DNA of 34,014 bases from Deltaproteobacteria bacterium. GTDB lineage: Bacteria > Desulfobacterota > Dissulfuribacteria > Dissulfuribacterales > UBA3076. Shown here piece after piece: positions 3,723-22,297 of the stretch. The DNA lies in NCBI GenBank assembly GCA_030606515.1, contig JAUWGF010000002.1, positions 1 to 34,014 on the forward strand, in the 5' to 3' direction. The notes beneath the pieces were generated by a model. That model did not search any database. It saw nothing but the letters and a program-made list of their open reading frames with translations, and was not told the DNA's origin. The position numbers and the translations under genes were made by a program. Numbering within the stretch: the stretch's first letter is position 1; every line of letters begins with the position of its first letter.

Positions 3723-4679
3723 ATGAGCGAATCATTTATATTTGCACACCTTTCAGACCCCCATCTGACATCCCTGCGTAATATCAGGGTACGAGACCTG
3801 TTGAACAAGCGGGCGCTCGGATATCTCTCATGGCGTCTGCACCGACGCTTTGAATACCGAGGTGAGGTGCTTGCAGCCCTGGTTCGCGACTTGCACTGCA
3901 TCAGGCCGGAACACATTATCATTACCGGTGACTTGACGCATCTGGGTCTGCCATGTGAATTCCTAGAGGTCAAGAAGTGGCTGCATCTTTTGGGCCCTCC
4001 TTCACAGGTCACCGTGATTCCAGGCAATCATGACGCCTATATTGCCACCGACTGGGCCCATACCTTTGTTCACTGGTTAGAATACATGGTATCTGATGCA
4101 GGACAAGATTGTGTCGGAAAAAAGTTAGATACTCGCACACTTTTCCCCAGTCTGCGTATACGCCGCGAAACGGCTTTCATTGGGCTTTCCTCGGTACGGC
4201 CCAGCAAACCGTTTTTTGCCCTGGGCAGTGTGGGACAGATACAATTACAGAAGTTAGGACATATCCTGGCGCAGACGGGCCGTCAGGGCCTGTTTCGGAT
4301 CGTGATGATTCACCATCCTCCTCAGCCCGGCATAGTGACTTGGCGCAGACGGCTTACGGACAGCAGAGAATTACGTTTGCTTATAGCACAACAGGGTGTG
4401 GAGATGGTGTTGCACGGCCATGCCCATCGTTCCTCTATGGCATGGCTAAAGACTCCCGCAGGCCATGCCCCTGCAATTGGTGTCCCGTCCGCATCAGCGA
4501 CGAGCCGGAAGTCTGGGTATAGTGCTCAGTACAATATTTACTCCCTGAGTCAAAATGCTTATGGCTGGGAGATTACAATTGAGGTACGCGGCTATGCGCC
4601 CAAGGAAGGGCGTTTCATAGTCGAGGGCGAAAATCGACTAGCGATTCCCTGTCCGATGCCAGACCTACAGACGTCGTAA
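3723..4679 (+). CDS. Calcineurin-like metallophosphoesterase
   Basis: Motifs in canonical order: AHLSDPH, ITGDLTH, IPGNHD, MIHHPP, LHGHAH. The 3' end overlaps the lptG 3' end by 15 nt (convergent). Confidence 0.8.
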   Translation: MSESFIFAHLSDPHLTSLRNIRVRDLLNKRALGYLSWRLHRRFEYRGEVLAALVRDLHCIRPEHIIITGDLTHLGLPCEFLEVKKWLHLLGPPSQVTVIPGNHDAYIATDWAHTFVHWLEYMVSDAGQDCVGKKLDTRTLFPSLRIRRETAFIGLSSVRPSKPFFALGSVGQIQLQKLGHILAQTGRQGLFRIVMIHHPPQPGIVTWRRRLTDSRELRLLIAQQGVEMVLHGHAHRSSMAWLKTPAGHAPAIGVPSASATSRKSGYSAQYNIYSLSQNAYGWEITIEVRGYAPKEGRFIVEGENRLAIPCPMPDLQTS

Positions 4680-5729
4680 CTGCCTGAGTGCAACATATAC
4701 AATGATGGCTATAGGTGTCATTGTGGTAAGCGCCGGGGAGAGGCTGAATATCAGCCCTAAATATCCAAGGATCTGGACACCAAAATAAAAGGCTATTCCG
4801 ATGATCGAGCCCAACATTATCCTGTTTTCCGTACTTACTGAACGTGGTGACCCGAAGACGAATGGAAGCGAGAGCAAAATCATGGCTCCGGTGCTGAATG
4901 GAATACTCAATTTTTGCCATAAGGCCAATGCATAGTGCTCTGCATTTACCCCTTTTTCCCGGAGTGTCCGGACATATTGATAAAGGTCGGAAGGAGATAG
5001 GGTGTCAGGAGGAAGTGCCAGGACACTGACCTGCTTTGATGTCAAGAATGAATTCCATGTCAGGCCGTCAAACTGCTGTGTGGTTATGTCTACTTCTTTA
5101 ATAATTTTTTGATCCACGTCTTTGAGCAGCCATTGTTTGTTACCGCGGATTTCTGCCTTGCGGGCATGCATGAAGATCTTCATACGGCCTTGTGCGTCAA
5201 ATTCATAGATATCAATGTCTATCGGACCCTCCCCCTGAAGGATATCGTGAACGTGAATAAAGCGGAGACCGTCACTGGCCCAAAACCCGTGTTCCGTCGG
5301 CATTGTACCAGGTCTGGAGAGGGCAAGTAAACGTTGCATCCAGGCATACTGCGCCATTGGCGGAGCGATAAACTCTGCCAGTACTGCCACCACCAGCATG
5401 AGAAGTATGCTGGTACCGAGGACTGAGCACCAGATCCGCTGTACCGAAACACCACAGGTCTGCATGGCCGACAGTTCACTGTGGCTGGCCAGTGGCCCCA
5501 GTGCAACGATGCTCCCCAGCAAAGCGCTTACCGGCATTAGCTCCAGTACGTGCATAGGCAGTGTTAGGGCCACAAATGCAAACGCATCCTGCATTTGATA
5601 CCGTCCAGTTCCGATGTCGTCCAGTTGGCCTACAAGCTCTAAAAAACAAAACAAGGCAACCAATATGATCATGACCAAGAGACATCCTAGAACGACACTT
5701 ACGCCGATATAGCGATCAAGTATTTTCAC
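4665..5729 (-). CDS. lptG: LPS export ABC transporter permease LptG
   Basis: 354 aa with a GTG start. N-terminus is MKILDRYIG. There is a periplasmic middle domain (GFWASDGLRFIHV...IYEF). The C-terminal block WQKLSIPFSTGAMILLSLPFVFGSPRSV resembles E. coli LptG. It lies downstream of lptF, as in E. coli. Confidence 0.8.
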   Translation of the reverse strand: MKILDRYIGVSVVLGCLLVMIILVALFCFLELVGQLDDIGTGRYQMQDAFAFVALTLPMHVLELMPVSALLGSIVALGPLASHSELSAMQTCGVSVQRIWCSVLGTSILLMLVVAVLAEFIAPPMAQYAWMQRLLALSRPGTMPTEHGFWASDGLRFIHVHDILQGEGPIDIDIYEFDAQGRMKIFMHARKAEIRGNKQWLLKDVDQKIIKEVDITTQQFDGLTWNSFLTSKQVSVLALPPDTLSPSDLYQYVRTLREKGVNAEHYALALWQKLSIPFSTGAMILLSLPFVFGSPRSVSTENRIMLGSIIGIAFYFGVQILGYLGLIFSLSPALTTMTPIAIIVYVALRQLRRL

Positions 5730-5865: not shown

Positions 5866-6915
5866 TCAAGGTTGTTTCCATATCAGTGCCAAGAATAGAC
5901 AAGCCAACAACGCATGGATCCACCAGATACCAGGCATAGTACCCACGACCCCATGTTCTACCCAGGTTTTGGCCATCAAAATAGAGTTGTAATAAACAGC
6001 GAAGATCACTACAGCAACAGGCGTCTTGATGCACCTTCCCTGCCGCAGCGCCGTTCGGCTTAAGGGAACAGCCAGCAGCCCTAAGAGCACTGTGGAGAGA
6101 GGCATGGAGAGCCGCCACTGGAATTCTGCGATATCCTCGGGATCGTCGGAACGTGCCAATTGCATGATGGAAGCAGCTTTGGATTTATACTCCACAGGTA
6201 CTGTCTCCTCGGGCAGATGGAATATGAATTGCTTGAATTTTAAAACCTGATCGGCCTTTCTATTAAGGGCGAACTCATACCTGTACCCGTTTAAAAAAAA
6301 CAATATTCGGTCGCCGCTGGTCATATCGACTTTTTGATAGACTTGCTTTGCGTAGATGACCTGCAATGTATCGTTATGTTCATCCTGTATAAAGACTCGT
6401 TTTGCTCGACTCAGATGAGAATCGACCTTTTCTGCAAAAACAACCCGGTTTTCCTGCCCGATTGAGTGGAAACGGCCCGGTTCCATCTGGGCGATATCAA
6501 ATTTAGTTTCCGCCTGTGTCCTCAATCGATGCATTTCCTTATATGCCCAAGGACGGACAAATAAAGACAAGCATGCAATCAGCGCAGCAAAAAGCAGGCA
6601 TAAGTTTAAAACTACAAGGAATATTCGGATATTGCTCACACCGGAGACAGCCAGCGCCGTCATCTCGAAGTTTGTGTAAAGGCGTCTCATAGTCAACACA
6701 ATAGACAGATACAGGGCCATAGATAGGAGTATCTCTAGAGCTTTAACTGTCTTGAGTAGGATCAGGGATATGGCAGTGCTTCTCGGTAACTGCCCGCTCA
6801 CTGCATCAGCCAGGTAATGGGTTGCACTGTAGCTTACGAAAATAACCAGCAAAATGGCAAATATCACCACTAGGGGTTTGCTTATTTCGTGAATTATGTA
6901 ACGGTCTATGAGCAA
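5866..6915 (-). CDS. lptF: LPS export ABC transporter permease LptF
   Basis: 349 aa. N-terminus is (M)LIDRYIIHEISKP, and the layout is a 6-TM YjgP/YjgQ type with a central periplasmic domain. The only in-frame start after the upstream stop is TTG at 6915, so the start is uncertain. Confidence 0.75.
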   Translation of the reverse strand: MLIDRYIIHEISKPLVVIFAILLVIFVSYSATHYLADAVSGQLPRSTAISLILLKTVKALEILLSMALYLSIVLTMRRLYTNFEMTALAVSGVSNIRIFLVVLNLCLLFAALIACLSLFVRPWAYKEMHRLRTQAETKFDIAQMEPGRFHSIGQENRVVFAEKVDSHLSRAKRVFIQDEHNDTLQVIYAKQVYQKVDMTSGDRILFFLNGYRYEFALNRKADQVLKFKQFIFHLPEETVPVEYKSKAASIMQLARSDDPEDIAEFQWRLSMPLSTVLLGLLAVPLSRTALRQGRCIKTPVAVVIFAVYYNSILMAKTWVEHGVVGTMPGIWWIHALLACLFLALIWKQP

Positions 6916-7158: not shown

Positions 7159-7914
7159 ATGAGAGTAGTGATTTTGAGTGCGGGCCAAGGCCGAAGGCTG
7201 TTACCGCTTACCAACAATTTTCCAAAATGCATGCTGTGCATTCATGGGCGATCTTTGCTCGAATGGCAAGTAGATGAACTATTCAAATGTGGCATCGAGC
7301 AAGTGACTGTTGTTGTCGGCTACGGCGCCGATCAGGTCGAGAAACTCTTGGCCGACCGGTATAAATCGCACAAGGTGCGGACCATCTATAATCCGTTTTT
7401 CGCAGTCGCTGACAATCTGGTTTCCTGCTGGGTAGCGCGTACCGAGATGAACGAGAACTTTATTCTTTTGAACGGTGATACCTTGTTCGAAACAGCAGTG
7501 TTACAACGTCTTCTTGCTTCACAGGACCGGCCAGTGACGGTAATCACAGATCGCAAGCTTACGTATGACGCCGACGATATGAAAGTCATGCTGGACGGGG
7601 ACAGTCTCATCAGGATCGACAAGGATATTCCTCTTGATCAGGTTGATGCAGAGTCCGTTGGCATGATCTCCTTTCGTGGGAAGGGGCCAGCTTTATTTCG
7701 TGCGGTTATAGAGCAGGCCTTGCGCAAACCGCAAGGCCTCAAACAGTGGTATCTGTCCGGGATCGATGAGATGGCGCGGTCAATGCCCGTATGGACTTGC
7801 TCCATTGAGGGACTTCAATGGGTCGAGATAGATTATCCCGCCGATTTAAAAGAGGCGGAAAGGCTTGTACAAAATTGGATACCAAAACAAGATCTGTCGG
7901 CCGGTACAGGTTAG
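7159..7914 (+). CDS. Sugar- or alcohol-phosphate nucleotidyl(cytidylyl)transferase, LicC/IPCT-like
   Basis: N-terminus MRVVILSAGQGRRLLPLT carries the G-x-G-x-R-L NTP-transferase signature. LLNGDTLF and VEIDYPADL blocks are also present. I chose the ATG at 7159 instead of the 7030 ORF-track start. Confidence 0.75.
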   Translation: MRVVILSAGQGRRLLPLTNNFPKCMLCIHGRSLLEWQVDELFKCGIEQVTVVVGYGADQVEKLLADRYKSHKVRTIYNPFFAVADNLVSCWVARTEMNENFILLNGDTLFETAVLQRLLASQDRPVTVITDRKLTYDADDMKVMLDGDSLIRIDKDIPLDQVDAESVGMISFRGKGPALFRAVIEQALRKPQGLKQWYLSGIDEMARSMPVWTCSIEGLQWVEIDYPADLKEAERLVQNWIPKQDLSAGTG

Positions 7915-8723
7915 CCTCTCACAATGTCTTGAACAAGTCTCAAATCATCAATGCTATCCACATCTATGGCCGCTTCAGGAAAAGGCATTATAACAGCACC
8001 TGCGATGAGCCCCATCTGGCGCGATATCCGGGCCAGACCCTCATCAAGAGACAGCCGCCCCAGCAAATACCGCAATACTGCCATCCAACCGACGGCACTG
8101 ATCATACGCCATGGCTTCTTGCGCTTGCTTTCCACCTTGCGCCAGAAGTCGGCAGCAGTGCGGGCGCGAGGCGTGAGAAAAGCAAACAGATTGCAACTAC
8201 AGTAAGCACCGTCGCGAAGTCTCGTCACGGTCCTTCTTGTTCCCGGATAGGCCGCCGCCAACAGTTCGTACCGGGCCAGACCGATGACAATGTCGCATTC
8301 TGTAGAGCGGGCACGGGAACAAAAATAATCCACCATCTGAGCGTTCAAAAGGGCGTGATCAGCGGTCGTTACTAGAACGGGTCTATCTTTCGGAAGCGAT
8401 TGCAATATGTACAAAGTACTTGAACTGGGGGTTGCCCGATTTTCCACCCATTTCACATGACCCGATGCAATGCGGTCACAAAGCTCTGCATCCTGATTCA
8501 CTGCATACCGTTGCGGGCCGCACATTATACAGGCGTCTATTTCCTTGGCAGCGTTCAAGGCATCGAGCACGCGAAGGACCATGGGCCTACCGTCCACCAA
8601 AGTCAATGCCTTGCAACAGACCCCTGTTGCCTTGGCAACAGGGTCATCAGGCGAGCGATTCGCCGCAAGGACTACGGCTGTGAAACGTGGTGTCTCTGTA
8701 TTGACATCGCTCAAGTTCCTCAT
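7911..8723 (-). CDS. MobA-like nucleotidyltransferase family protein (NTP_transf_3-like)
   Basis: 270 aa. The N-terminal blocks AVVLAANRS....KAL..VDGRPMV and TTADHALL are typical of MobA-like NTP transferases. Its start overlaps the stop of the upstream gene (ATGA at 8720-8723). Its 3' end overlaps the 7159..7914 gene by 4 nt. Confidence 0.5.
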   Translation of the reverse strand: MRNLSDVNTETPRFTAVVLAANRSPDDPVAKATGVCCKALTLVDGRPMVLRVLDALNAAKEIDACIMCGPQRYAVNQDAELCDRIASGHVKWVENRATPSSSTLYILQSLPKDRPVLVTTADHALLNAQMVDYFCSRARSTECDIVIGLARYELLAAAYPGTRRTVTRLRDGAYCSCNLFAFLTPRARTAADFWRKVESKRKKPWRMISAVGWMAVLRYLLGRLSLDEGLARISRQMGLIAGAVIMPFPEAAIDVDSIDDLRLVQDIVRG

Positions 8724-9964
8724 TTCAGTTTCTTTTGATAGATACGGTAACGTTTGTATACCTCGGCCCCCAGCGACTCCAGCATGTTTCGCATTCTCGT
8801 ATTGTCTTCAAGGATCCAGGACAGTTCCACCTCTTGTATACCGCGTTTGACCACGGCAACACGTACTGCGTCGATTATCATAAACGCGAGCACAGCACCC
8901 AACAGGCTATGCTGATAGCGTTTACGTATGCCCATAAGAACGGCCCGCCCTGTCTTGGGATAGGTTATCTTAAGACGCCATAGCAGTTTGAACCAGCCAA
9001 TAGGCAAAAGCCGTCCGTTAAGATCTCGAATGATCTCATTCAAATTTGGGAATGCGACTATCATAGCTGTCGGGATACCGTCCACTTCGGCGATTTGCAC
9101 AAAGTTTTCATCCACCAGGGACGCCAAATTACGGCCTAAATCTCTAAACTCCGACTCGGTAAAAGGGATGAAACACCAGTTTTGTGACCAGGCATCTTCA
9201 AAGATATCGCGTATGATCTGCAGATCTTTCTCCAGGCTGGATTTGCGCAATGGCCGAATGCGCACCCGCCCTGCCATCTTGCCCATGGCTTGTATAACAG
9301 CAGGTATCATAAAATCAGTGCCGAGACGATATGCCAACAGGTCTTTTTCCTTGAAATAGTCCTGTTCCTCTAACCGCTCCGCGTAGTAAGGACAGGCATG
9401 ACCCATCATGACCATGGGAGGTGTATCAAAACCTTCCACCAGAAGGCCACACTCATGGTTGATGGAAAGGTTAAACGGCCCAAGGACTCGGCGCATGCCC
9501 ATCTCGCGCAGCCAGGTCTCAGCGGCGTTCAGAAGGGACCGGAAAATTGCGGCATCGTTTTGCGCATCCAGCATCCCGAAAAAACCAGTAGCATCCTGAT
9601 AACGTTCCAGATGGAGCTCGTCCACCTGGGCACTGATGCGGCCGACGGGCTGCTTGCCCCGGTAGGCAATCCAGAAACGACAACGTGCATGCGCGAAATA
9701 AGGATTTCGGCGGGACAGATGTTGGTGCCGTTCTATCAAAAGGGGTGGTACCCATACCGGGTCGTCTGCATAGATTGACCACGGAACGCGGATGAACCTG
9801 TACAAGGCACGACGACCTGTCACAGGTACGACTCGTAACAACCCATTATTTTGTCTCTGTCTGCCAGGCGGACGTGGGATAAAAGATTTCATAGCGAATG
9901 AAAACACCGGATATATTCGTATCCATTGGGAAATTACAACATAGAGTAACCGTTCACCGTTCAT
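8720..9964 (-). CDS. GNAT-like acyl-CoA N-acyltransferase; candidate bacterial ceramide synthase (bCerS-type)
   Basis: 414-aa ORF, or 390 aa if the ATG at 9892 (MKSFIP...) is used. The blocks RFIRVPWSIYADDPVWVPPL and GFFGMLDA, and the C-terminal RAVLMGIRKRYQHSLLGAVL, fit a large GNAT-superfamily protein. The function is inferred from its divergent adjacency to the spt operon. Confidence 0.45.
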   Translation of the reverse strand: MNGERLLYVVISQWIRIYPVFSFAMKSFIPRPPGRQRQNNGLLRVVPVTGRRALYRFIRVPWSIYADDPVWVPPLLIERHQHLSRRNPYFAHARCRFWIAYRGKQPVGRISAQVDELHLERYQDATGFFGMLDAQNDAAIFRSLLNAAETWLREMGMRRVLGPFNLSINHECGLLVEGFDTPPMVMMGHACPYYAERLEEQDYFKEKDLLAYRLGTDFMIPAVIQAMGKMAGRVRIRPLRKSSLEKDLQIIRDIFEDAWSQNWCFIPFTESEFRDLGRNLASLVDENFVQIAEVDGIPTAMIVAFPNLNEIIRDLNGRLLPIGWFKLLWRLKITYPKTGRAVLMGIRKRYQHSLLGAVLAFMIIDAVRVAVVKRGIQEVELSWILEDNTRMRNMLESLGAEVYKRYRIYQKKLK

Positions 9965-10033
9965 GGTTCAATGTTCAAGGGTTAATTGCAGTGCAAGTTT
10001 ACCCTATGAATCCTAAGAACCAAATGAATTAAT

Positions 10034-10062
10034 TTGACATTCGGAAATAAATGAAATATCAA
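10034..10062 (+). promoter_or_regulatory. Sigma70-like promoter candidate for the ceramide/ulosonate gene string
   Basis: TTGACA (10034-10039), a 17-nt spacer, then TATCAA (10057-10062). It lies about 80 nt upstream of the ATG at 10145, in an AT-rich divergent intergenic region. Confidence 0.3.
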
Positions 10063-10144
10063 TAAGGCCATTTACAAAACCTATCTTTTGCTTGATAGCT
10101 GCTTGTTCGTCAATGATAAAACTGATCATTATCCAATAGAGGTT

Positions 10145-12016
10145 ATGCAGGCGACACCGACCGAAAACAATCTGCCGTTGCGGGGCGCAGATTTTTCCAC
10201 GCTGGCGGAGGCACTTGATTACGCTGCCCGGGGTAAGACCGGGTATAACTTTTATACCAGCAAAGGGAAACTTTCTGCCGTGCTTCCTTATGCACAATTG
10301 AGGGAAGAGGCACAGGTACTGGCCCTCCGTCTCCACAGCCTGGGGCTGGAACGTGGTACCCGGATGGCACTGGTGGCAGACACTCACCCTGATTTCCAGC
10401 GCTTCTTTTTTGCCTGCCAATACGCCGGCTTGGTGCCGGTCCCACTTCCCGCAATGATTTCCATGGGTAGCCGCAATAATTATGTGGCGCATTTGCGGAG
10501 GCTGCTCGTAAGTAGCCAGGCAGCGGTTGCCATGGCCCATGAAGGGTTTATCGAGTTTCTTGCCGAGGCCGCTGCAGGATTGGACCTCAGGTTTGTCGGC
10601 GCCCCTAATGCATTTGCTGATCTTCCCCAAAGCACTATCCAGCCGCTTCCCATAGGACCCATGGAGATGGCCTACATTCAATACACATCTGGAAGCACGC
10701 GCTTCCCGCGTGGGGTGATCATCTCCCAAAAAGCGATTCTGAGCAATCTGAGAGGCATTATTAGGACCGGGCTCCGGATGCGGCCCGATGATCGTTGCCT
10801 ATCCTGGCTTCCATATTACCATGATATGGGCTTTGTTGGATTCGTACTGGCCCCGCTGGCATGTCAGCGCTCTGTCGATTACTTGGGCACTCAGGCATTT
10901 GCAATGCGGCCCAGGCAGTGGTTGGCCCTGATGACCCAGAGCAGGGCCACGATCTCTTTCGGTCCACCGTTTGGTTATGAACTCTGCGCACGCCGAGTCA
11001 GGAAAAGCGATATGGACCGGTTTGACCTCAGTGCCTGGCGCGTGGCAGGAGTCGGAGCGGAAATAATCCGTCCCGACTTCCTAAAACAGTTCGCGAAAAT
11101 CTTTGCTCCCTGTGGATTCGACAAAAAGGCCTTTCTAGCTTGCTACGGCATGGCAGAATGCTCTCTCGGTGTGAGTTTTGCGTCTCTCGGCCAGGGTCTG
11201 GATGTGGACATTATAGACACCGACCATTTTGTTGCACACCAGGAGGTATTGGCTGTGGAGGACGGTTCAGAGGAAGAGCGCCCTTTGCGTACGAGCATCT
11301 TCGTTAAGTGCGGCAAACCGCTGCCAGGGTATGAAGTCGTAGTACGGGATCGGCAAGGAAGGGAATTGCCGGACAAGCGCTGCGGGATCATTTTTATTAA
11401 GGGGCCGAGTGTGATGTCCGGTTATATCGGAGATATTGATGCGACCCGGGAGGTCCTGTCCCAGGATGGCTGGCTCAATACCGGTGATATCGGTTATCGA
11501 ATCCAGGGAGATATCGTGATTACTGGACGTGAAAAGGACTTGATCATTATCAACGGCCACAATATCTGGCCTCAGGACCTGGAGTATCTGGTCGAGCAGA
11601 AGCCCGGGGTGAGGCGTGGAGATGCAATGGCCTTTTCCGTCACAGGTGCAGGAGGAAAAGAAATCGTTGTCATGGTCGTTCAGTGCCGTGAATCCGACCC
11701 AGCGAAGAAAAAATCCATGACCAAACAACTGCAGGGTTTGATCCGCCAGGGATCGGGTATTGACTGCTTCGTGGAACTGGTCCCTCCCCATACATTACCT
11801 CGCACTTCTTCCGGGAAGCCGTCTCGATCCAAAGCGCGGCAGGATTTTATCCAACGAATTGGGCAAGGCCACAAAAGTGCACAGAAACGGCCTACGACAA
11901 AACGCCCAGCAGAGTATTCCGCCTTAGATAGATATTACAAGGATAATCCGTTTGCTGATTTATTTTTTCCCGATTATCCCAAACGCATTTCTGAATCAGT
12001 GTTCATCGATAGATAG
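10145..12016 (+). CDS. Fatty acyl-AMP ligase / acyl-ACP synthetase-like adenylating enzyme
   Basis: AMP-binding core motif YIQYTSGSTRFPRGVIIS, plus GYELCA, TGDIGY and the C-terminal PRTSSGKPSR. AGAGG sits 4 nt before the ATG at 10145. The C-terminal ~70 aa form a basic extension. Confidence 0.8.
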   Translation: MQATPTENNLPLRGADFSTLAEALDYAARGKTGYNFYTSKGKLSAVLPYAQLREEAQVLALRLHSLGLERGTRMALVADTHPDFQRFFFACQYAGLVPVPLPAMISMGSRNNYVAHLRRLLVSSQAAVAMAHEGFIEFLAEAAAGLDLRFVGAPNAFADLPQSTIQPLPIGPMEMAYIQYTSGSTRFPRGVIISQKAILSNLRGIIRTGLRMRPDDRCLSWLPYYHDMGFVGFVLAPLACQRSVDYLGTQAFAMRPRQWLALMTQSRATISFGPPFGYELCARRVRKSDMDRFDLSAWRVAGVGAEIIRPDFLKQFAKIFAPCGFDKKAFLACYGMAECSLGVSFASLGQGLDVDIIDTDHFVAHQEVLAVEDGSEEERPLRTSIFVKCGKPLPGYEVVVRDRQGRELPDKRCGIIFIKGPSVMSGYIGDIDATREVLSQDGWLNTGDIGYRIQGDIVITGREKDLIIINGHNIWPQDLEYLVEQKPGVRRGDAMAFSVTGAGGKEIVVMVVQCRESDPAKKKSMTKQLQGLIRQGSGIDCFVELVPPHTLPRTSSGKPSRSKARQDFIQRIGQGHKSAQKRPTTKRPAEYSALDRYYKDNPFADLFFPDYPKRISESVFIDR

Positions 12017-12058
12017 AGGTGGTATCGTGTCCGATCCGGCGTCCACCGGAAGGTCCTT

Positions 12059-13000
12059 ATGTCTCGTGTGATTGCCTTGACGGGAGCAACCGGGTTCATA
12101 GGCGGTGTACTGGCACAGCGGCTTGAGGCCGAAGGCTGGCAAGTCAGGGCCTTAGTGCGTCTTTCCTCGGTTAAGGCCCGGCTTACCGGCATGGTCACGC
12201 AGTGGGTGATAGGGGACCTGGAGGACATGGACAGCCTACGCCGTTTGGTTTGCGGTGCAGAAGCCGTCGTGCACTGTGCAGGCGCAGTTCGTGGCGCATC
12301 CCAGGACTATTTTAATCGGGTCAATAGCGCAGGTGTAGCGAGGCTGGCCCAGGCTGCTACAGAAAACTATCCGCCACCGCGCTTTTTGATGATTTCTTCG
12401 CTGGCGGCCCGTGAACCGGACATCTCTCCGTACGCGGCCAGCAAGCGACAAGGTGAAGCCGCATTGGCGGCTACTGCAAAGGAAATGGACTGGACTGTGT
12501 TCCGGCCGCCTGCTGTGTATGGACCCGGGGACAAAGAACTGCTGCCGCTGTTGCGCTGGATAGGACGGGGTATCGCTTTGGTGCCGGGTGCTGGTCATGC
12601 CCGCCGGTTTTCATTGTTATACATAGAAGACTTGGCAGAGGCGGTGATAAGATGGTTGGAAAGCGACAGTTGTGGACAAGATGTATTCGAACTGCACGAC
12701 GATCGTAGCGGCGGATATACTTGGAGTGATGTGATCAAAACGATCGCACTGCTACGCGCCAGACCTGTCCTTCGCGTGCGGGTGCCTGTGACGGTACTTG
12801 CTACCCTGACCAAGCTGAATCTGATGACGGCCAGGATGGTAGGATATGCGCCGATGCTGACCCCTGGAAAATTACGGGAACTTATGCATCCCGACTGGGT
12901 GTGCGATAATACGCCCTTTAGCAAGGCAACCGGATGGAAACCGCAGATTCCCCTGGAAGAAGGCCTGCTGCGTACATTGGGATGGCACGACGAATCTTGA
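12059..13000 (+). CDS. NAD(P)-dependent epimerase/dehydratase-fold reductase, CerR-like (candidate ceramide/3-keto reductase)
   Basis: Rossmann motif ALTGATGFIGG at the N-terminus and a YAASK catalytic Y-x3-K. It sits between the ligase and ACP genes, as in the Caulobacter ceramide cluster. Confidence 0.65.
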   Translation: MSRVIALTGATGFIGGVLAQRLEAEGWQVRALVRLSSVKARLTGMVTQWVIGDLEDMDSLRRLVCGAEAVVHCAGAVRGASQDYFNRVNSAGVARLAQAATENYPPPRFLMISSLAAREPDISPYAASKRQGEAALAATAKEMDWTVFRPPAVYGPGDKELLPLLRWIGRGIALVPGAGHARRFSLLYIEDLAEAVIRWLESDSCGQDVFELHDDRSGGYTWSDVIKTIALLRARPVLRVRVPVTVLATLTKLNLMTARMVGYAPMLTPGKLRELMHPDWVCDNTPFSKATGWKPQIPLEEGLLRTLGWHDES

Positions 13001-13015
13001 AAGGAGCGCGAACCT

Positions 13016-13264
13016 ATGTCACAGTATGAAGACATCCTTGCACAAATCTATCCGGTTCTGCAGCAGCTCGCCCGTGACAAGCAGGAAATCAATGAAGCGA
13101 CGGATTTGGTAGCCGATCTCGGTCTTGATTCTATGGCGGTAATGGAACTTCTACCCGCTATAGAGGACTGCTTCGATATCTCCATTCCATTAAATATATT
13201 GCCAGATGTCCGTACGGTTAAGGACCTTGCTTCACAGGTCCAACAATTGATGCTGGAATCGTGA
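13016..13264 (+). CDS. Acyl carrier protein
   Basis: 82 aa with the phosphopantetheine attachment motif DLGLDSMAVMEL. AAGGAG lies upstream. The stop overlaps the spt start (TGATG). Confidence 0.85.
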   Translation: MSQYEDILAQIYPVLQQLARDKQEINEATDLVADLGLDSMAVMELLPAIEDCFDISIPLNILPDVRTVKDLASQVQQLMLES

Positions 13265-14505
13265 TGGGCATTTTCGACAAGTTCCATCGTCTCGCTACGG
13301 ATCAGCGGGCCCTGGTAGATAGTGGCGTCAATCCTTTTAACGTCGTCATCGAGCGGCTCATTTCGGCAACCGAGGCGATCGTGAACGGACGTCACACCAT
13401 CTTAGCCGGTACCAACAACTATTTGGGGCTTACTTTTGATCCGCAATGTATCGAAGCGGCAAAAAAGGCCGTTCAAGCTCAAGGGACCGGGACGACTGGA
13501 TCACGGATGGCAAACGGGACATATGCTGGTCATGCTGCGTTGGAACGTGAATTTGCAGACTTTTTCGGTTACCGTTCTGCCATCGTATTTTCTACCGGCT
13601 ACCTTGCCAATCTGGGGATGTTGTCGGTCCTGGCGGGTCGCGGTGATACGATTTTGGTAGATGCACACTGTCATGCGAGTATCTATGACGGATGCCGCAT
13701 GGGCAGTGCGGAAATCATTCGATTCCGACATAACAATGTGATTGATTTAGAGAAACGCCTACGACGGCTTGGCAAAAAGACCGCAAATACACTGATTCTG
13801 GTGGAGGGCATCTATAGTATGTTAGGCGACCGGGCCCCTCTGGCAGATATAGTAACCTTAAAGCAGAAATACGGTGCCTATCTACTGGTGGACGAGGCCC
13901 ATTCACTGGGTGTTCTTGGTGAACACGGGCGCGGGCTTCTCGAGGAAGCCGGTGTGGGAAACAGCATGGACTTTATCATAGGTACCTTTAGCAAAAGTCT
14001 GGGCGCAACCGGCGGCTTTTGTGTCAGCAACCACCCTGAATTGGATCTGATTCGCTATGCCAGCCGCCCGTATATCTTTACCGCGTCGCCTGCTCCACCG
14101 GTCATCGCCTCCACCCGGACTGCACTCAAGATACTTAAGACACACCCTGAATTGCGCCGACGGCTCTGGCGTAACGCCCGCCATTTGTATCAAGGTCTTG
14201 ACGATATGGGCTTCAGCCTGGGCCCGGAGATCAGTCCTATTGTTGCAGTCCGCTTGCCGAGTGTAAAACAGGCCCTCGTCCTCTGGGGCAATCTTTTGGA
14301 TCGCGGGGTGTATGTGAATCTGGCATTACCCCCGGCCACACCGGACAGCGCGTCCCTGGTTCGCTGTAGCGTGAGCGCAGCGCATACTCAGGAACAAATA
14401 GACTACATCTGCAAGGTCTTTTCCGATCTGAGAGAAGGTGCCATAACCCTGGATGCGCAGTCAACCGCGGTCGATAGCCCTTTGGATGTTACACCCGCAT
14501 CCTGA
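13264..14505 (+). CDS. spt: Serine palmitoyltransferase (alpha-oxoamine synthase family)
   Basis: The PLP-lysine block is GTFSKSLGATGGF. The long blocks HASIYDGC..AEIIRFRHN..DLEKRL, VEGIYSMLGD, LVDEAHS, RPYIFTAS and YVNLALPPATP closely match my recollection of Sphingomonas SPT, and fit it better than BioF or Kbl. GTG at 13261 is an alternative start. Confidence 0.85.
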   Translation: MGIFDKFHRLATDQRALVDSGVNPFNVVIERLISATEAIVNGRHTILAGTNNYLGLTFDPQCIEAAKKAVQAQGTGTTGSRMANGTYAGHAALEREFADFFGYRSAIVFSTGYLANLGMLSVLAGRGDTILVDAHCHASIYDGCRMGSAEIIRFRHNNVIDLEKRLRRLGKKTANTLILVEGIYSMLGDRAPLADIVTLKQKYGAYLLVDEAHSLGVLGEHGRGLLEEAGVGNSMDFIIGTFSKSLGATGGFCVSNHPELDLIRYASRPYIFTASPAPPVIASTRTALKILKTHPELRRRLWRNARHLYQGLDDMGFSLGPEISPIVAVRLPSVKQALVLWGNLLDRGVYVNLALPPATPDSASLVRCSVSAAHTQEQIDYICKVFSDLREGAITLDAQSTAVDSPLDVTPAS

Positions 14506-14582
14506 ATGTGAGACAGGCGGGTATTGCACGAAGAAGGGCTTATCCTGATTTTTGGAATCTTGGCAATGGCCGGACGCATAAC

Positions 14583-15647
14583 ATGAAGAAGAGAGAAGCG
14601 AGGCCCTTTTGCGAGGTCCATTTCGGCGGTCCTGATATGCCGGCATACTGCTTGCGTGACCTCCTAGCGGAACGTATCGCTGCGGTGCCGCCCGGCGGAA
14701 CCATTGATTGGGTAACATACTACTTTCGTGACCGGATGCTGGCCGAGGAATTAATCCGTGCCCACCGGCAAGGCATCAAGGTTACTGTGACACTGGAGCG
14801 TCATCCTCGAACAGCGTATGCCAATGAGAATGTAATTGGAATGTTGTCTGGCCCGAATGGCTTAGGCGAAGGGTTTCGTACCGTGTCCCTGCAGCGGGTG
14901 CCAACCTCTCCCGGGATAGTTTGGAAACCGCATTTGCATGAAAAGCTCTATTGCTTTTCCCACCCGAGGCCGATTGCCTTTATCGGTTCCTTTAACCCGT
15001 CCGGAAATGGTCCAGGGGATGATCCAGCTATCATAGCTGAAATCGGTGACCAGGATCACGGTCACAATGTCCTGGTTGGGCTTGATGACCCCAGGCTGGT
15101 TGAAAGGCTGGTTGAACATGCCCGGTGGATCCACCAGACGAAACGTATCATGTTCTATCGTTTTTCCCCGACTGCAAACAAAGCGGTGAAAGGGAAGGAC
15201 ACCGATATTTTTTTTTGGCCGCGGATACGGCCGCATCCTGTAATACGGTTTCTCTCACGGCTTGGAGCGGGCGCGCGGATACGAATTGCTGCGTCACACA
15301 TCAAAGGGGCGCCAATCGTCAAGGCCTTGATACGACTTGTCCACAGTGGCGCAATAGTAAAGATATTGGCTGAACCAACACTGAGACGGGTCCCTGTGGG
15401 GGTAGAGCGGATGCTGATTCAAGCCGGAATCCCGTTCCGGCGCGTTATTCATCCTAAGGGTCTTCCGATGCATAACAAGTTCGTGCTTGCGGAGAAGGAT
15501 GGCCGGCGCTGGGTTATTTTCGGCAGCTTTAACTGGACAACTCGATCTTATTGGCTCAATCATGAGATTGGCGCTATTTCCACCAATGATCAACTCTTTG
15601 ATGCGTTTGCCAAGCGCTGGGAGGCCTTGGCAGTTCGCAGGGATTAA
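14583..15647 (+). CDS. Phospholipase D superfamily protein with two HKD motifs
   Basis: HKD-1 is HLHEKLYCF...IGSFNPS. HKD-2 is PMHNKFVLAEKDGRRWVIFGSFNWT. No TM helix is evident. The start is ambiguous (GTG 14508, ATG 14583 or ATG 14637). Confidence 0.75.
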   Translation: MKKREARPFCEVHFGGPDMPAYCLRDLLAERIAAVPPGGTIDWVTYYFRDRMLAEELIRAHRQGIKVTVTLERHPRTAYANENVIGMLSGPNGLGEGFRTVSLQRVPTSPGIVWKPHLHEKLYCFSHPRPIAFIGSFNPSGNGPGDDPAIIAEIGDQDHGHNVLVGLDDPRLVERLVEHARWIHQTKRIMFYRFSPTANKAVKGKDTDIFFWPRIRPHPVIRFLSRLGAGARIRIAASHIKGAPIVKALIRLVHSGAIVKILAEPTLRRVPVGVERMLIQAGIPFRRVIHPKGLPMHNKFVLAEKDGRRWVIFGSFNWTTRSYWLNHEIGAISTNDQLFDAFAKRWEALAVRRD

Positions 15648-15658
15648 AAGCAGCTGTT

Positions 15659-17029
15659 ATGACTATTTCACCTTCAACCCTTATTATTCCGGTAGAGACG
15701 CAAGTCCGGGAGATGGATGCCAAACTTCTCTTGGGTTGTATTGCGGTTGAGAGCGGTTTTCCTGTCATTATAGGCTCACGGGCGTTTCTCCATTTCCGGG
15801 TAGACTCGATTCCGAGGGGCGTTTATCTTGCCAAGAGCATTCGTTCGTTAAGCATTCGTATGTTCGACATCCTGCGCAAGCTTGGTCATGAAATCGTTGC
15901 GTGCGATGAGGAAGGCCTGCTGCGTGAACCAGACCCTGAATATTACCGGTGGCGACTGTCACCTATCACTATGCGGCAAGTCTCCCACCTGATTGCGTGG
16001 GGCCCGGATGACGCGAGCACCTTTCGCAAGTATCCCGGCTATCATGGAGCGGAAATCCATATTACCGGGAATCCCCGCGTCGACTTGATACGGCCGGAAC
16101 TTCGTGAGTTTTACCGGTCAGACGCAGATGCAATTCGTGAACGGTTCGGAGACTTCGTGCTGGTCAACACAAACTTTAGCAAGGTAAACCATTTTTATCC
16201 GGAGCTCAGCGAACTTAAAAAGGCAATGGCAAAAGATGGCACCGATGCGGCGAATCGATTTGATATCGGTAAAGGTCGGCATAAACTTGCCCTTTTTAAT
16301 TACTTTCAGGAGATGCTTCCATCACTTTGTGAGTCGCTGGGTAACTCTAATGTGGTCGTCCGGCCTCACCCGGCTGAGAACCAAGGTCCATGGCATGCCA
16401 TAGCTGCACGGTGTGACAATCTGCATGTGGCAAACGATGGGAGCGTAATTCCGTGGCTGATGGCAGCACAGGCATTAATTGCGAATGGCTGTACGACCCA
16501 AGTGGAGGCTGCAGTGCTCGGCACGCCGACTGTGAACTACCAGCCAGTGAAATCAGAGATGTTCGACTTTGAATTGCCTGGTTTGGTAAGCCGGTGTGTC
16601 TTTTCACTCGATGAACTCTGCACGACGGTTCGTGCCATCGTGAAAGGAAATCTCGGGCTGCTTGATTATGCTGAGCGTCGAAAGATATTGGATCGGCACA
16701 TCGCGGGGCTTGACGGCCCTTTGGCAGCGGAACGGATTATCCAGGTCCTGGAGGCCGGAGGCTACAACAAGAGACAACCCCCGGCTACATCATTGAACGT
16801 CTATGTCCATGGCTGGATCCAAAACCACTTGCGGACAATGTCGAAACGTATCAATATGCATCGACCCGGGCATCGAAATAATCTAGCCTACCATGCCTAT
16901 CGCTTTCCAGATATTTCTGTGTCGGAAATCATGAGAAAGATAGCATGCATGGGAAGATTGCTTAATCGCTTTGAGACCATCAAGGTTACACAGGTATCTA
17001 AGCATATATTCAGGATCAGCATCAATTAA
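15659..17029 (+). CDS. Surface-carbohydrate biosynthesis protein, predicted GT-B-like transferase (paralogue 1)
   Basis: 456 aa, roughly 40% identical by eye to 24175..25569. Shared blocks include LIIP.E.QVRE.D.KLLL, ITGNPR.D, ..N.NFS.VN, RPHP.EN, NGCTT..EA, LDGPLA..RII and GHRNN. The fold assignment is a guess from the alternating pattern. Confidence 0.45.
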   Translation: MTISPSTLIIPVETQVREMDAKLLLGCIAVESGFPVIIGSRAFLHFRVDSIPRGVYLAKSIRSLSIRMFDILRKLGHEIVACDEEGLLREPDPEYYRWRLSPITMRQVSHLIAWGPDDASTFRKYPGYHGAEIHITGNPRVDLIRPELREFYRSDADAIRERFGDFVLVNTNFSKVNHFYPELSELKKAMAKDGTDAANRFDIGKGRHKLALFNYFQEMLPSLCESLGNSNVVVRPHPAENQGPWHAIAARCDNLHVANDGSVIPWLMAAQALIANGCTTQVEAAVLGTPTVNYQPVKSEMFDFELPGLVSRCVFSLDELCTTVRAIVKGNLGLLDYAERRKILDRHIAGLDGPLAAERIIQVLEAGGYNKRQPPATSLNVYVHGWIQNHLRTMSKRINMHRPGHRNNLAYHAYRFPDISVSEIMRKIACMGRLLNRFETIKVTQVSKHIFRISIN

Positions 17030-17042
17030 AGGAGATATTCTC

Positions 17043-18146
17043 GTGTACAGCGTAAAAATCTACGGCGCCGGTTCTATCGGCAACCATTTGGCACATGTCT
17101 GCCGTACCAAGGGGTGGGATGTTCTTATATGCGACATTGACCATGATGCACTGAAACGAACACGCGAGGACATATATCCGTCCCGCTATGGACGCTGGGA
17201 CCCGGACATACTCCTTTCAGAGGCAGATACTGGCTCAGGTGAAGGTTTTGACATGGTCATAATAGGCACCCCTCCGGACACCCACATTAGTGTGGCAACC
17301 AGGGTGTTGGAAAACAACCCACCGAAAGTATTGCTTATTGAGAAGCCTTTGTGTACGCCCTCTCTCGATGGGGTCCAGAGGATTGTCGACCTTAAAAAGG
17401 CCACCGGGACATTCGTTGCGGTCGGTTATAACCATAGCCTGACCGAGAATTCCAGGCGCGCGGCCCGGATTCTTGCAAAAAACACGATTGGCGATCCGAT
17501 CACTATCAGCGCCTGTTTCAGGGAACATTGGGGCGGTATTTTCACCGCCCATCCATGGCTGAGCGGCCCCAAGGACACCTACCTCGGTTTTTCTGAACGT
17601 GGAGGCGGAGCTGGCGGAGAACATTCTCACGCCATAAACATCTGGCAGCGGTTTGCCCATCTTGTTAACGCTGGAAGGATCGTTGAGGTATCCTCCACAA
17701 TGGATGTGGTAGTAGATGGTATTGTTAAATATGACCGGATTTGTCTGCTGAATGTCAAGACCCAGGCTGGTCTCGTGGGAGACATCGTCCAGGATGTGGT
17801 TACTGAGCCCCCGCAAAAAAAGGTGAGAATTCAAGGCTCCAACGGCTTTCTGGAATGGTTTGTCAATCTTGATGGCGGACATGATGCCGTGCGTTACTGG
17901 GATGGAAAAGGAGAGATCATAGAAGAAACAATTCAAAAAACGCGTCCCGACGACTTCAAAGGAGAGATAGACTTTATTGAAGTTATCCTGAACGGAGGGG
18001 ATCCAGCGGACGCTCCCATATCGCTTGAGAGGGGGCTTGAGACCATGCTGGTTATAGCTGCTGCTTATGTCTCCCATCGACACAAGAGAACCGTGAGGAT
18101 CAACTATGACGGGGGATACGGACCCGAGGCCTTTGAGATATCCTAA
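17043..18146 (+). CDS. Gfo/Idh/MocA-family NAD(P)-dependent oxidoreductase
   Basis: GTG at 17043 is preceded by AAAGGAG. N-terminal dinucleotide motif KIYGAGSIGNH. MVIIGTPPDTHISVATRVLENNPPKVLLIEKPL is the family's hallmark block. Confidence 0.7.
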   Translation: MYSVKIYGAGSIGNHLAHVCRTKGWDVLICDIDHDALKRTREDIYPSRYGRWDPDILLSEADTGSGEGFDMVIIGTPPDTHISVATRVLENNPPKVLLIEKPLCTPSLDGVQRIVDLKKATGTFVAVGYNHSLTENSRRAARILAKNTIGDPITISACFREHWGGIFTAHPWLSGPKDTYLGFSERGGGAGGEHSHAINIWQRFAHLVNAGRIVEVSSTMDVVVDGIVKYDRICLLNVKTQAGLVGDIVQDVVTEPPQKKVRIQGSNGFLEWFVNLDGGHDAVRYWDGKGEIIEETIQKTRPDDFKGEIDFIEVILNGGDPADAPISLERGLETMLVIAAAYVSHRHKRTVRINYDGGYGPEAFEIS

Positions 18147-18177
18147 TAAGTGCCCGTCCGGAAACAAGGTAAATTTT

Positions 18178-19701
18178 ATGCACAACTTTAATTTTAACGA
18201 TCTGTTTATTCTCGATCTTGCCAACAACCACCAGGGCGACATGAAGCATGCCCTCAACATCATTAATGCAATGGGTAATGTAACCAGAAAGGCCGGTGTC
18301 CGTGCCGCTTTCAAGTTTCAATTCAGGCAATTGGATACCTTTATTCATCCGGATTACAAACAGAGAAAGGATGTAAAACATATCCCGAGATTCATGGAAA
18401 CGGCCTTGACCGCACAGCAATACGAGACACTTACTAAAGCCGTCATTAAGAATGGGATGCATACGATATGCACCCCGTTTGACGAAGAATCCGTGGACGT
18501 TATCCTTGATTTGGGCATTGAAATTATCAAAGTGGCCAGTTGTTCCGCAAGTGACAGGCCTCTTATTGAACGGATTACCCAGGTGAACAAACCCGTCATT
18601 GTCTCAACTGCAGGGTTAAGCATGGACAAGATAGACAGGCTGGTGAGTTTTCTCGAATCAAGAAACATGCACTTTGCCTTGATGCACTGTGTGGCCATCT
18701 ATCCTACGCCGAACGACAAGCTGAGATTGAATCAGATCAACGTGCTGAAAGAGCGGTTCCCGGACGTGCCCATTGGGTTCTCCACCCATGAGGACCCTGA
18801 CAACTACGCGGCCATTCAAATTGCTTATGGAAAGGGCGCAAGGCTGTTCGAAAGGCACGTAGGAATGGAGACAGAAGAACATAAGTTAAACAGATATTCC
18901 TCCAGACCTGAGCAAATCGCCCGATGGATTGAGGCACACAAACAGGCCGTAGCGGCCTGTGGCGGAAAGCATCGCAGCCCTGCCTCTCCTGAAGAGATTG
19001 CCTCTTTACGCTCACTCATGCGTGGGGTATTCGCAAGGGAGGAGATCAAGAAAGGTGATAAGCTTAAGAGGGACAGGGTCTATTTTGCAATGCCGCTCAG
19101 TGACGGCCAGCTTACAAGTGGCGACTGGTTTGATGGGGTTGAGGCTGACAAGGATTATTCTCCGCACGAGCCTGTAAATATGGCTGTTGCCAACACTGTA
19201 TTGCCCCCGGAAGAGATAATTTACCGCATCATGCTTCAGGTGAAAGGGATGCTCCACAAGGCGAGGATACATATCGGAAAGGACAGCTCCATTGAGTTGT
19301 CCCACCACTATGGTCTTGAACGGTTCAGGGAATTCGGTGCGGTCATCATGAACTGTATCAACCGCAAGTATTGCAAAAAACTAATCATCCAGCTTCCCAG
19401 ACAGAAACATCCCTACCATTTTCATAAAAAAAAGGAAGAAACATTCCAGTTGTTATACGGGGATTTGGAGGTAGAACTGGACGGAAAAAGGATCAAACCG
19501 CAGATAGGGGATACTATTCTGGTAAGACCTGGTGAATGGCATAAATTCCATACCCTTGATGGTGCAATTTTTGAGGAAGTGAGTACCACCCACTTTGATA
19601 ATGACTCTTTCTATGAGGATGATAGGATAGCAAGACTCCCCAGGGAGGCGAGGAAAACAGTCATCTCCAAATGGAATGTAATTGAAAAGCAGGCATCCTA
19701 A
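18178..19701 (+). CDS. NeuB-family ulosonic acid (sialic-acid-like) synthase with SAF region and a C-terminal cupin domain
   Basis: Blocks align to E. coli NeuB: LANNHQGD, KFQFR, CTPFDEESVD, KVASCS, IVSTAGLSMDKI, MHCVAIYPTP, IGFSTHE, FERHVG. A SAF-like region follows (EIKKGDKLKRDRVYFAMP). The C-terminal cupin is HPYHFHKKKEETFQLLYG...GDTILVRPGEWHKFH...EDDRIAR. Confidence 0.8.
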   Translation: MHNFNFNDLFILDLANNHQGDMKHALNIINAMGNVTRKAGVRAAFKFQFRQLDTFIHPDYKQRKDVKHIPRFMETALTAQQYETLTKAVIKNGMHTICTPFDEESVDVILDLGIEIIKVASCSASDRPLIERITQVNKPVIVSTAGLSMDKIDRLVSFLESRNMHFALMHCVAIYPTPNDKLRLNQINVLKERFPDVPIGFSTHEDPDNYAAIQIAYGKGARLFERHVGMETEEHKLNRYSSRPEQIARWIEAHKQAVAACGGKHRSPASPEEIASLRSLMRGVFAREEIKKGDKLKRDRVYFAMPLSDGQLTSGDWFDGVEADKDYSPHEPVNMAVANTVLPPEEIIYRIMLQVKGMLHKARIHIGKDSSIELSHHYGLERFREFGAVIMNCINRKYCKKLIIQLPRQKHPYHFHKKKEETFQLLYGDLEVELDGKRIKPQIGDTILVRPGEWHKFHTLDGAIFEEVSTTHFDNDSFYEDDRIARLPREARKTVISKWNVIEKQAS

Positions 19702-19737
19702 TGTGAGTTTTTAGCTACGTTTCATAACGAGGGTTAT

Positions 19738-20370: not shown

Positions 20371-20373
20371 TCA

Positions 20374-21117: not shown

Positions 21118-21263
21118 TCAGACCGTCTTGGACCTCCCATTTTTGGATCCCCCGCCACCCCTGGTTGCCAGGTTGATAGTCTGACCGGAGGATAATCAAA
21201 AATATGACGGCGCGAAATATCAAGATGTTCGGCATCTTAAAAAGCCTCGGCCACGATATCATC
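21108..21263 (+). pseudogene. Relic copy of the leader plus internally deleted 5' part of the 24175..25569 gene
   Basis: 21115-21203 matches 24086-24174 with 5 mismatches in 89 nt by eye. 21204-21263 matches 24355-24414 with 2 mismatches in 60 nt. The junction is the 7-nt word ATGACGG, which occurs at both 24175 and 24355. That corresponds to an in-frame 180-nt deletion. Confidence 0.75.
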
Positions 21264-21330
21264 AGGTTAATGAGTTTCCAAATTTCTGGTCATAATTTTC
21301 AGGAAAGTCTCTACGTTGGGTTTGGAGTGC

Positions 21331-22032: not shown

Positions 22033-22297
22033 CCGGTTATTTGAGTTATGTTTCGTGATCAGCAATTCACGGTGAAAGCCTATTTTATGTAGATTGCGAA
22101 GCCGTCGCCGTTTCTGGATGCTATCCCGGAAGATCTGTGCAGCACGTTGGACCGCATAAAACCAACGCTTTTTCCCTGTTGTCAAGGCCACGTCATTTCA
22201 CCTACGTTGACGTTTTCCTGACCCTGAATCCTTTAGCCTTGAACCTGGGTATTTACAGCAATTCTTTCGAAAAGAACCAAGAGCCAGGAGGTCTGAA

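Follow-up and report, generated by a model that had tools for sequence, protein, structure and literature searches.

Does an uncultured sulfate reducer of the Desulfobacterota encode the ceramide pathway known from Caulobacter crescentus? The question is raised by contig JAUWGF010000002.1 of a Deltaproteobacteria bacterium (assembly GCA_030606515.1), of which positions 1 to 34,014 were analysed and are referred to below as the window. The original prediction, made from the sequence alone, had recognised a complete ceramide gene set between positions 8720 and 14505 and described it as collinear with the Caulobacter cluster. Bacterial ceramide synthesis by serine palmitoyltransferase (Spt), the N-acyltransferase bCerS and the reductase CerR is established, and genes of this type are predicted to occur widely and frequently in clusters, also in metagenome-assembled genomes (MAGs) of Desulfobacterota. 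The pathway is not new but its link to the present host, Seep-SRB2, is. As judged from its sequence, the locus very probably encodes a functional Caulobacter-type, i.e. acyl carrier protein (ACP)-dependent, ceramide pathway in a bacterium of Seep-SRB2 / Dissulfuribacterales.

The presence and integrity of the genes, their family membership, their catalytic motifs and their synteny can be read directly from the locus. On the forward strand, an AasR-like fatty acyl-AMP ligase (acyl-ACP synthetase; 10145..12016, 623 amino acids (aa), ATG start) is followed by a CerR-like NAD(P)-dependent reductase of the extended short-chain dehydrogenase/reductase, NDUFA9-like type (12059..13000, 313 aa), an AcpR-like dedicated ACP (13016..13264, 82 aa) and Spt (13261..14505, 414 aa, GTG start), with gaps of 42, 15 and -4 nucleotides (nt). 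The reverse strand carries a bCerS-like N-acyltransferase of the tandem GNAT type (8720..9892, 390 aa; the open reading frame (ORF) extends to 9964, 414 aa). As had been predicted, this large GNAT-like gene is divergently transcribed from the intergenic region it shares with the ligase gene, the spacer measuring 180 nt from a start at 9964 or 252 nt from a start at Met25. All five ORFs are uninterrupted and full length relative to their homologues, and the ORF map and the family models agree with the predicted succession of ligase, epimerase-fold reductase, ACP and alpha-oxoamine synthase. The synthase ends at 14505 as first proposed, but the start given for it, 13264, is an ATG that forms the next codon after the GTG start at 13261. 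The aasR-cerR-acpR-spt order equals that of CC_1165-CC_1164-CC_1163-CC_1162 described in Caulobacter (PMC11324152), and with five intact ORFs and an identical four-gene order the claim of a complete, collinear set is borne out. In the same study cerS is always found in a transcription unit separate from aasR-cerR-acpR-spt, a rule that also holds here, where cerS is encoded on the opposite strand and diverges from the operon.

Relatives of the locus were taken as the best 80 loci from one scan of a genome collection with the GNAT-like protein (51-68% identity), and genes were counted in them by tblastn with the window proteins. All five genes occur together in 35 of these 80 loci, which span several phyla, and 32 of those 35 have the head-to-head cerS / aasR layout. 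The MAGs that share the arrangement are labelled as Desulfobacterales, Nitrospirales, Geobacteraceae, Methylomirabilota and beta- and gammaproteobacteria, and the best 80 also include cultured organisms, namely Nitrosomonas communis, N. oligotropha and Nitrosospira; no Caulobacter locus is among these 80. In Caulobacter the CC_1152-CC_1168 region provides the same five functions, with the four-gene operon in the same order and orientation and cerS as a separate unit; there, however, cerS is eight genes away from the operon, whereas in the window it abuts the operon head-to-head.

The synthase was assigned with family models and by its solved relatives. On the NCBIfam Spt equivalog NF047599 (cut-off 500) it reaches 640.6 bits (E 7e-193), and it passes the betaproteobacterial Spt model; the two Spt models besides NF047599 give 504 and 361 bits, the latter value being that of NF047600 (Bacteroidota Spt), whose cut-off of 640 is not reached. 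It falls under the cut-offs of bioF (326 vs 426) and Kbl (313 vs 460), and reaches 227 bits on a CqsA-type and 224 bits on an ALAS model. The best matching sequences in the PDB are the SPTs of Sphingomonas wittichii (2x8u, 462 bits; 54% identity over 383 residues) and S. paucimobilis (2jg2, 447 bits), followed at a distance by Sphingobacterium SPT (3a2b, 285 bits), Kbl (at most 230 bits; E. coli 222), BioF (at most 186 bits; E. coli 170) and a cysteate acyltransferase (185 bits). Since the synthase is about 300 bits better on the Spt model and its closest structures are Sphingomonas SPTs, it does not cluster with BioF or Kbl, and its original naming as Spt stands. The Spt-specific blocks quoted in support of that naming are all present, HASIYDGC at residues 138-145 (13672..13695), AEIIRFRHN at 150-158 (13708..13734) and GTFSKSLGATGGF at 241-253 (13981..14019). 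In the alignment with 2x8u the blocks HASIYDG (138), VDEAHS (210), GTFSKS (241) and PPATP (357) correspond, so that all catalytic blocks are common to the window Spt and the Sphingomonas enzymes. We take the roles of the pyridoxal phosphate lysine in GTFSKS, of the active-site histidine and of the Asp-x-x-His motif to be those of S. paucimobilis SPT. By family the synthase is thus predicted to be an Spt of the proteobacterial ACP-dependent type. In Sphingomonadales the pathway genes are scattered and the crystallised SPTs were studied with acyl-CoA, whereas in the window the ACP and its loading enzyme are adjacent to spt. The Bacteroidota pathway (Sphingobacterium 3a2b; Bacteroides, Porphyromonas) shares the first reaction and the class of end product, but its Spt is a weaker match, its enzymes use acyl-CoA and its genes are not clustered.

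The three genes upstream of spt were assigned in the same way. The ligase gene opens the operon at the place of CC_1165, and its product scores 784 bits on the NCBIfam fatty acyl-AMP ligase model NF006624 (cut-off 600, E 7e-236), its best PDB match being the fatty acyl-adenylate ligase (FAAL) 3pbk at 549 bits. A longer ORF with a TTG start at 10088 exists, but gene calls on related contigs use the 623-aa form. The ACP matches PP-binding (E 5e-12) and carries its phosphopantetheine site, DSM, at residue 38; it lies immediately upstream of spt, and its stop codon overlaps the spt start by 4 nt. The reductase matches Pfam Epimerase (E 3e-27) and contains the motifs GATGFIG (GxxGxxG) at residue 9 and YAASK (YxxxK) at residue 125. 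Its best PDB matches are NDUFA9 / 39-kDa subunits of complex I, and CerR itself has been reported as an NDUFA9 homologue (PMC11087976). A reductase of 41-61% identity is located between aasR and acpR in 45 of the best 80 related loci, and likewise in the further contigs L083-L089. The protein is best described as CerR-like, and its predicted orthology to CC_1164 / CCNA_01222 is supported by position.

The divergent GNAT-like protein belongs to a family of more than 7900 members. The original prediction had named 8720..9964 as the N-acylating enzyme; its end still applies but its start does not, as 20 homologues of about 391 aa (alignment A1) begin at the equivalent of Met25 (MKSF...), and because these more distant homologues begin there the gene is likelier to span 8720..9892. 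The protein matches Pfam Acetyltransf_1 weakly (23.1 bits, cut-off 20.7), has no match among the curated NCBIfam models, and a sequence search of the PDB returned nothing useful (E 0.8). An AlphaFold model built on the family alignment (mean predicted local distance difference test score, pLDDT, 70.7) best matches the tandem-GNAT structures 5kf1, 2wpw and 7q3a (E 1e-13 to 1e-11, TM score 0.57-0.68). The link to bCerS is provided by Nitrosomonas. The N. communis protein at the position of Neut_1100 shares 52% identity with the GNAT-like protein (E 6e-150), and Neut_1100 is the published orthologue of CC_1154 (41% identity, E 5e-105, 100% coverage), the protein that is genetically required for ceramide in Caulobacter and has been named bCerS. 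Behind the N. communis homologue come two LptF/G genes and then the genes for a CDP-alcohol transferase, for a DAGK_cat kinase and for a protein of 323 aa, and in most other Nitrosomonas and Nitrosospira loci a MobA-like gene is inserted between the cerS homologue and the LptF/G pair. This gene order equals the published order from Neut_1100 to Neut_1106, and hence the N. communis homologue corresponds to Neut_1100. The expected similarity to bCerS homologues is thereby shown indirectly, and through this chain, which is strong but transitive, the GNAT-like protein would belong to the bCerS family.

The resemblance to Caulobacter extends well beyond the core set. The original prediction was correct for the core, but the match reaches much further, to position 1411, and it does so without the DAGK-type head-group kinase. 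Putative counterparts of the CC_1152-CC_1161 region accompany the core genes between 1411 and 8723. Next to cerS, a MobA-like nucleotidyltransferase (7911..8723, reverse strand; NTP_transf_3 E 2e-13) is the counterpart of CC_1153 and occupies the Neut_1101 position; it follows cerS in 62 of the best 80 related loci. A sugar-phosphate nucleotidyltransferase on the forward strand (7159..7914, with an ORF from 7030 and a domain that starts at Met44; NTP_transferase, NTP_transf_3) is the counterpart of CC_1152 and is found beside cerS in 34 of the 80. These two genes converge, and their 3' ends overlap by 4 nt (7911..7914). Further left, at the position of CC_1155/1156, the reverse strand encodes the permeases LptF (5866..6915; TIGR04407, 316.6 bits, cut-off 230; 45 of 80 loci) and LptG (4665..5729; TIGR04408, 338.4 bits, cut-off 240; 42 of 80 loci). 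Both pass the cut-offs of the canonical lipopolysaccharide (LPS) export equivalogs, and for this reason the pair may be the main Lpt permeases of the cell and not dedicated second copies, whereas the LptF/LptG-like genes of Caulobacter are second copies. A calcineurin-like metallophosphoesterase (3723..4679, forward strand; Metallophos E 2e-11; 32 of 80 loci) corresponds to CC_1158, and a CDP-alcohol phosphotransferase (2391..3611, with an ORF to 3704, reverse strand; CDP-OH_P_transf E 7e-10) corresponds to CC_1159/CpgA and shares 45% identity with its Nitrosomonas equivalent at the Neut_1104 position. The last member is a CpgC-like protein of 323 aa (1411..2382, reverse strand), a counterpart of CC_1161 by position that stands in the Neut_1106 position and is 41% identical (E 2e-79) to a protein of N. 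communis (L064:15823-16794). It has no Pfam or NCBIfam match, and the Tam41 signature reported for CC_1161 was not detected in it with Pfam even at E 1.

Counterparts of CC_1152, 1153, 1155/1156, 1158, 1159 and 1161 are thus found alongside the core genes in the window, which lacks the DAGK-type kinase (CC_1160), the HIT protein (CC_1157), LptC2, the flippase and CC_1167 of Caulobacter. The Nitrosomonas eutropha genes Neut_0458-0461 and Neut_1100-1106, which have been published as orthologue sets and are represented here by the loci of N. communis Nm44 and N. oligotropha Nm45, share with the window the run of cerS, MobA-like gene, LptF/G pair, CDP-alcohol transferase and CpgC-like gene, with cerS 51-53% identical. 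They differ in being split over three regions and in having a DAGK_cat kinase gene after that of the CDP-alcohol transferase and before the CpgC-like one, whereas the window holds everything in one region without the kinase.

Substrates, the order of the steps, products and expression are deduced from these relationships. In the proposed pathway the AasR-like ligase would adenylate a long-chain fatty acid and load it onto the dedicated ACP, and Spt would condense the acyl-ACP with serine to give 3-ketosphinganine. The divergent tandem-GNAT enzyme would then N-acylate this long-chain base, after which the NDUFA9-like reductase would reduce the 3-keto group to yield dihydroceramide; the placing of N-acylation before 3-keto reduction is taken from the Caulobacter model and would apply here by analogy. 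Assembly of an anionic phospho head group, and delivery of the finished lipid to the outer membrane, are probably the tasks of the flanking nucleotidyltransferases, CDP-alcohol transferase, CpgC-like protein, metallophosphoesterase and LptF/LptG.

The host was placed by its proteins. The clusters of at least 90% identity that contain window proteins carry the NCBI names "Deltaproteobacteria bacterium", "delta proteobacterium ML8_D" and "Dissulfuribacterales bacterium", and the closest named homologue of the NeuB-cupin fusion encoded downstream of spt (86% identity) is from Dissulfuribacterales. ML8_D is Seep-SRB2 sp. 7, and the MBW accession blocks of Seep-SRB2 MAGs (Ca. Desulfomithrium, class Dissulfuribacteria, Desulfobacterota) neighbour those found in the window-protein clusters (Murali et al. 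2023). The suspicion, first raised from gene style, that the host belongs neither to the alphaproteobacteria nor to the Bacteroidota was well founded, as these clusters name Seep-SRB2 strain ML8_D and Dissulfuribacterales. The host is a Seep-SRB2 / Dissulfuribacterales bacterium, an uncultured sulfate reducer of cold seeps, and the window sequence was found in about 20 public runs, nearly all of them cold-seep metagenomes. Among the bacteria that live in syntrophy with anaerobic methane-oxidising archaea (ANME) is Seep-SRB2 (Ca. Desulfomithrium, Dissulfuribacterales).

Several points weigh against the pathway as drawn. The amino-acid substrate of Spt is not readable from sequence, substrate choice among alpha-oxoamine synthases not being predictable by family membership alone, and metalipidomics of the Black Sea has linked abundant Desulfobacterota to 1-deoxy- and sulfono-1-deoxyceramides (PMC11334938). 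The cluster could on these grounds make a 1-deoxy or sulfono base from an amino acid other than serine, with alanine leading to 1-deoxyceramide and cysteate to capnine or sulfonolipid. This is improbable, however, in view of the 462 bits that the synthase scores on a serine-using Sphingomonas SPT as against 185 on the cysteate-C-fatty acyltransferase, its retention of the SPT-type PPATP, and the adjacent CDP-alcohol transferase and CpgC-like head-group genes, which need the C1 hydroxyl that 1-deoxy bases lack. A second point is that membership of the bCerS and CerR families is indirect, being argued from the transitive chain and from position, and that the NCBIfam hidden Markov models include no curated bCerS or CerR model. 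Together with the weak Pfam GNAT match and with structural neighbours that are sugar or small-molecule N-acetyltransferases at 11-13% identity, this would allow the GNAT-like protein to acylate another amine, such as an ornithine/lyso-lipid or a sugar, in which case the locus by itself would lead no further than the long-chain base. Such an activity is nevertheless highly improbable when relatives of 51-68% identity adjoin either aasR-cerR-acpR-spt or CC_1153-1161 counterparts across the best 80 loci, and when the Nitrosomonas member of the family sits at the position of Neut_1100, the orthologue of the very protein that Caulobacter requires for ceramide.

A third point concerns the head group, for a DAGK_cat ceramide kinase (CC_1160/CpgB) was not found in the 34-kb window, the best hit of a tblastn search with the N. 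communis kinase having an E value of 0.07. This kinase occurs in 36 of the related loci but is also absent from an independent MAG contig of the same lineage (L002, GCA_048634465.1). It may be encoded elsewhere in the genome, but its absence from the window means that the head-group route cannot be the unchanged Caulobacter one. A Kdo/WaaP-family kinase (287..1150, forward strand) adjoins the CpgC-like gene, at the place where related loci carry the DAGK_cat kinase, and only the window's own lineage (L002) has it there. Its identification as a diverged DAGK-type kinase was rejected (BLASTP E 0.44). It may replace the ceramide kinase without being its orthologue, or it may just be a kinase of the LPS core; the replacement is possible but unsupported, given that three such kinases are encoded in the LPS-core region of the window.

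The last of these points concerns expression. An RNA-labelled run (X16) covers the locus at a flat, low depth of 5-8 with contigs of both orientations, which could be carry-over of DNA; as the depth is flat on both coding strands, the run was discarded as proof of transcription. Promoter and terminator scans of 8600..22400 stayed at the level of shuffled sequence (15 promoters found vs 15.0 expected; 19 terminators found vs 14.4 expected) and, being at chance, are uninformative on the limits of the operon. The unreliability of X16 as transcript evidence and the chance-level scans are compatible with ceramide genes that are intact but silent, or that form a recently acquired island without a role in the host envelope, and horizontal spread would also agree with the nearest relatives of individual genes spanning several phyla. 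Silent or newly arrived genes are nonetheless extremely improbable here. There are no frameshifts or premature stops, the catalytic residues are conserved, and the GC content is even across the locus and its flanks (0.50-0.54). The second MAG keeps the whole arrangement at 94-100% protein identity, as do many seep samples, and LPS core and Lpt genes surround the locus. A functional ceramide pathway therefore remains the favoured account of the locus.

Downstream of spt the operon continues, which distinguishes it from Caulobacter, as does the host phylum, Desulfobacterota. Ten forward-strand genes from aasR to position 21117 are each at most 77 nt apart. The first gene after spt, 77 nt beyond it, encodes a PLD-superfamily protein (14583..15647; PLDc_2 E 1e-23) with two HxK...GSxN motifs, in which H119, K121, H297 and K299 are invariant (alignment A2). 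Its structural model (pLDDT 85.7) matches PPK1, PLD3/4, bacterial PLD and E. coli PssA about equally, and the function is consequently not fixed by the fold. Assignment by fold search was abandoned, as it did not tell lipid synthase, hydrolase, nuclease and PPK-like members apart. In five of six other contexts, homologues of 59-72% identity have sphingolipid genes as well as NeuB or cytidylyltransferase genes as neighbours. PLD homologues recur near the spt operons of other Thermodesulfobacteriota (L083, L085, L088, L089 and L093), often with an MsbA-like ABC exporter that the window does not have.

The PLD-like gene is followed by a cassette of five genes with gaps of 3 to 36 nt, all on the forward strand and all identified by family match, which is predicted to supply a CMP-activated, sialic-acid-like sugar. 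They encode a TIGR04396 surface-carbohydrate protein (15659..17029), a GFO/IDH/MocA oxidoreductase (17043..18146), a NeuB-cupin fusion (18178..19701), a HAD phosphatase (19738..20370) and a PseF/KdsB-like cytidylyltransferase (20374..21117). In the fusion protein a cupin replaces the usual SAF domain of NeuB; this form is conserved at 66-99% across many MAGs, and among PDB entries it is matched best by the SpsE-like protein 3g8r. A paralogue of the TIGR04396 protein is encoded further downstream on the same strand (24175..25569). The cassette of GFO, NeuB-cupin, HAD and cytidylyltransferase genes follows spt in L028, L033, L083, L085, L089 and L093, and in two of three further contexts, Ca. 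Moduliflexus (L091) and L092, it has no spt within 10 kb. Because it occurs both with and without spt, the cassette is read from its distribution as a putative mobile sugar-acid module, which Thermodesulfobacteriota frequently, though not invariably, combine with spt. The sugar acid might be added to the sphingolipid, or else to LPS or capsule, so that the cassette may or may not belong to the sphingolipid pathway; in Seep-SRB2 the sialic-acid genes have previously been interpreted as a capsule pathway (PMC10553843).

It is tempting, if rather unlikely, that the spt operon of Seep-SRB2 and several other Thermodesulfobacteriota has been extended so that the ceramide carries a CMP-activated sugar of sialic-acid-like (nonulosonic or ulosonic) type, possibly via a phosphodiester. 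Similarly doubtful is the corollary that the product would be a ganglioside-like bacterial lipid of the outer membrane, with the Kdo/WaaP kinase or a PssA-like PLD protein standing in for the DAGK-type kinase. Were it so, the role of the Seep-SRB2 sialic-acid genes would lie, in place of or in addition to the capsule, in a sphingolipid exposed at the surface of contact with ANME. No paper in the literature library that was searched connects bacterial sphingolipid clusters with nonulosonic acid genes, or Seep-SRB with sphingolipids, which the comparative genomics paper on Seep-SRB2 does not mention.

The locus is accordingly a variant of a known system, in that all genes are gathered in one place, a DAGK-type kinase is absent and the operon is extended by the PLD-like gene and the sugar-acid cassette. 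Should the lipids be produced, the Seep-SRB2 clade would gain candidate biomarkers in seep sediments, and the outer-membrane surface that contacts ANME cells would have to be pictured differently. The compact all-in-one locus, leading from ceramide to head group to Lpt export, would in that case also lend itself to heterologous study outside the Proteobacteria. That spt operons are repeatedly joined to a PLD-like gene and a cassette of the sialic-acid type offers a testable lead towards a new head group of bacterial sphingolipids. In two of the related contigs spt-like or aasR-like genes are fragmented (L087 915..2008 and L093 2778..4339), which could reflect frameshifts or assembly errors, and the cluster may be decaying in some lineages.

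Rfam and tRNA scans of the whole window gave no matches. The right half (21316..34014) is a neighbourhood of outer-membrane and LPS-core biosynthesis that encodes a DUF4833 protein (22298..22834), a MipA/OmpV-like protein (22898..23791), two more Kdo/WaaP-type kinases (25716..26555 and 31363..32931), heptosyltransferase II (26884..27969), a heptosyltransferase-like protein (27987..29474) and a B12-binding radical SAM enzyme (29541..31058). At the opposite end, one of the four-helix-bundle fragments that had been mentioned as a mark of gene style proved to be real. It is a 36-codon fragment (99..209) of a gene for a protein of the 23S rRNA intervening-sequence type, MKRVYELDVYKLAEVLSNMIWHDFDKWNKTVQKHEG, followed by a stop codon. 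The depth over positions 1..667 is about 53,000 in metagenome contigs, compared with about 27 in the rest of the window, and many variable joints fall between 71 and 216, which indicates a variable repeat of very high copy number in the community.

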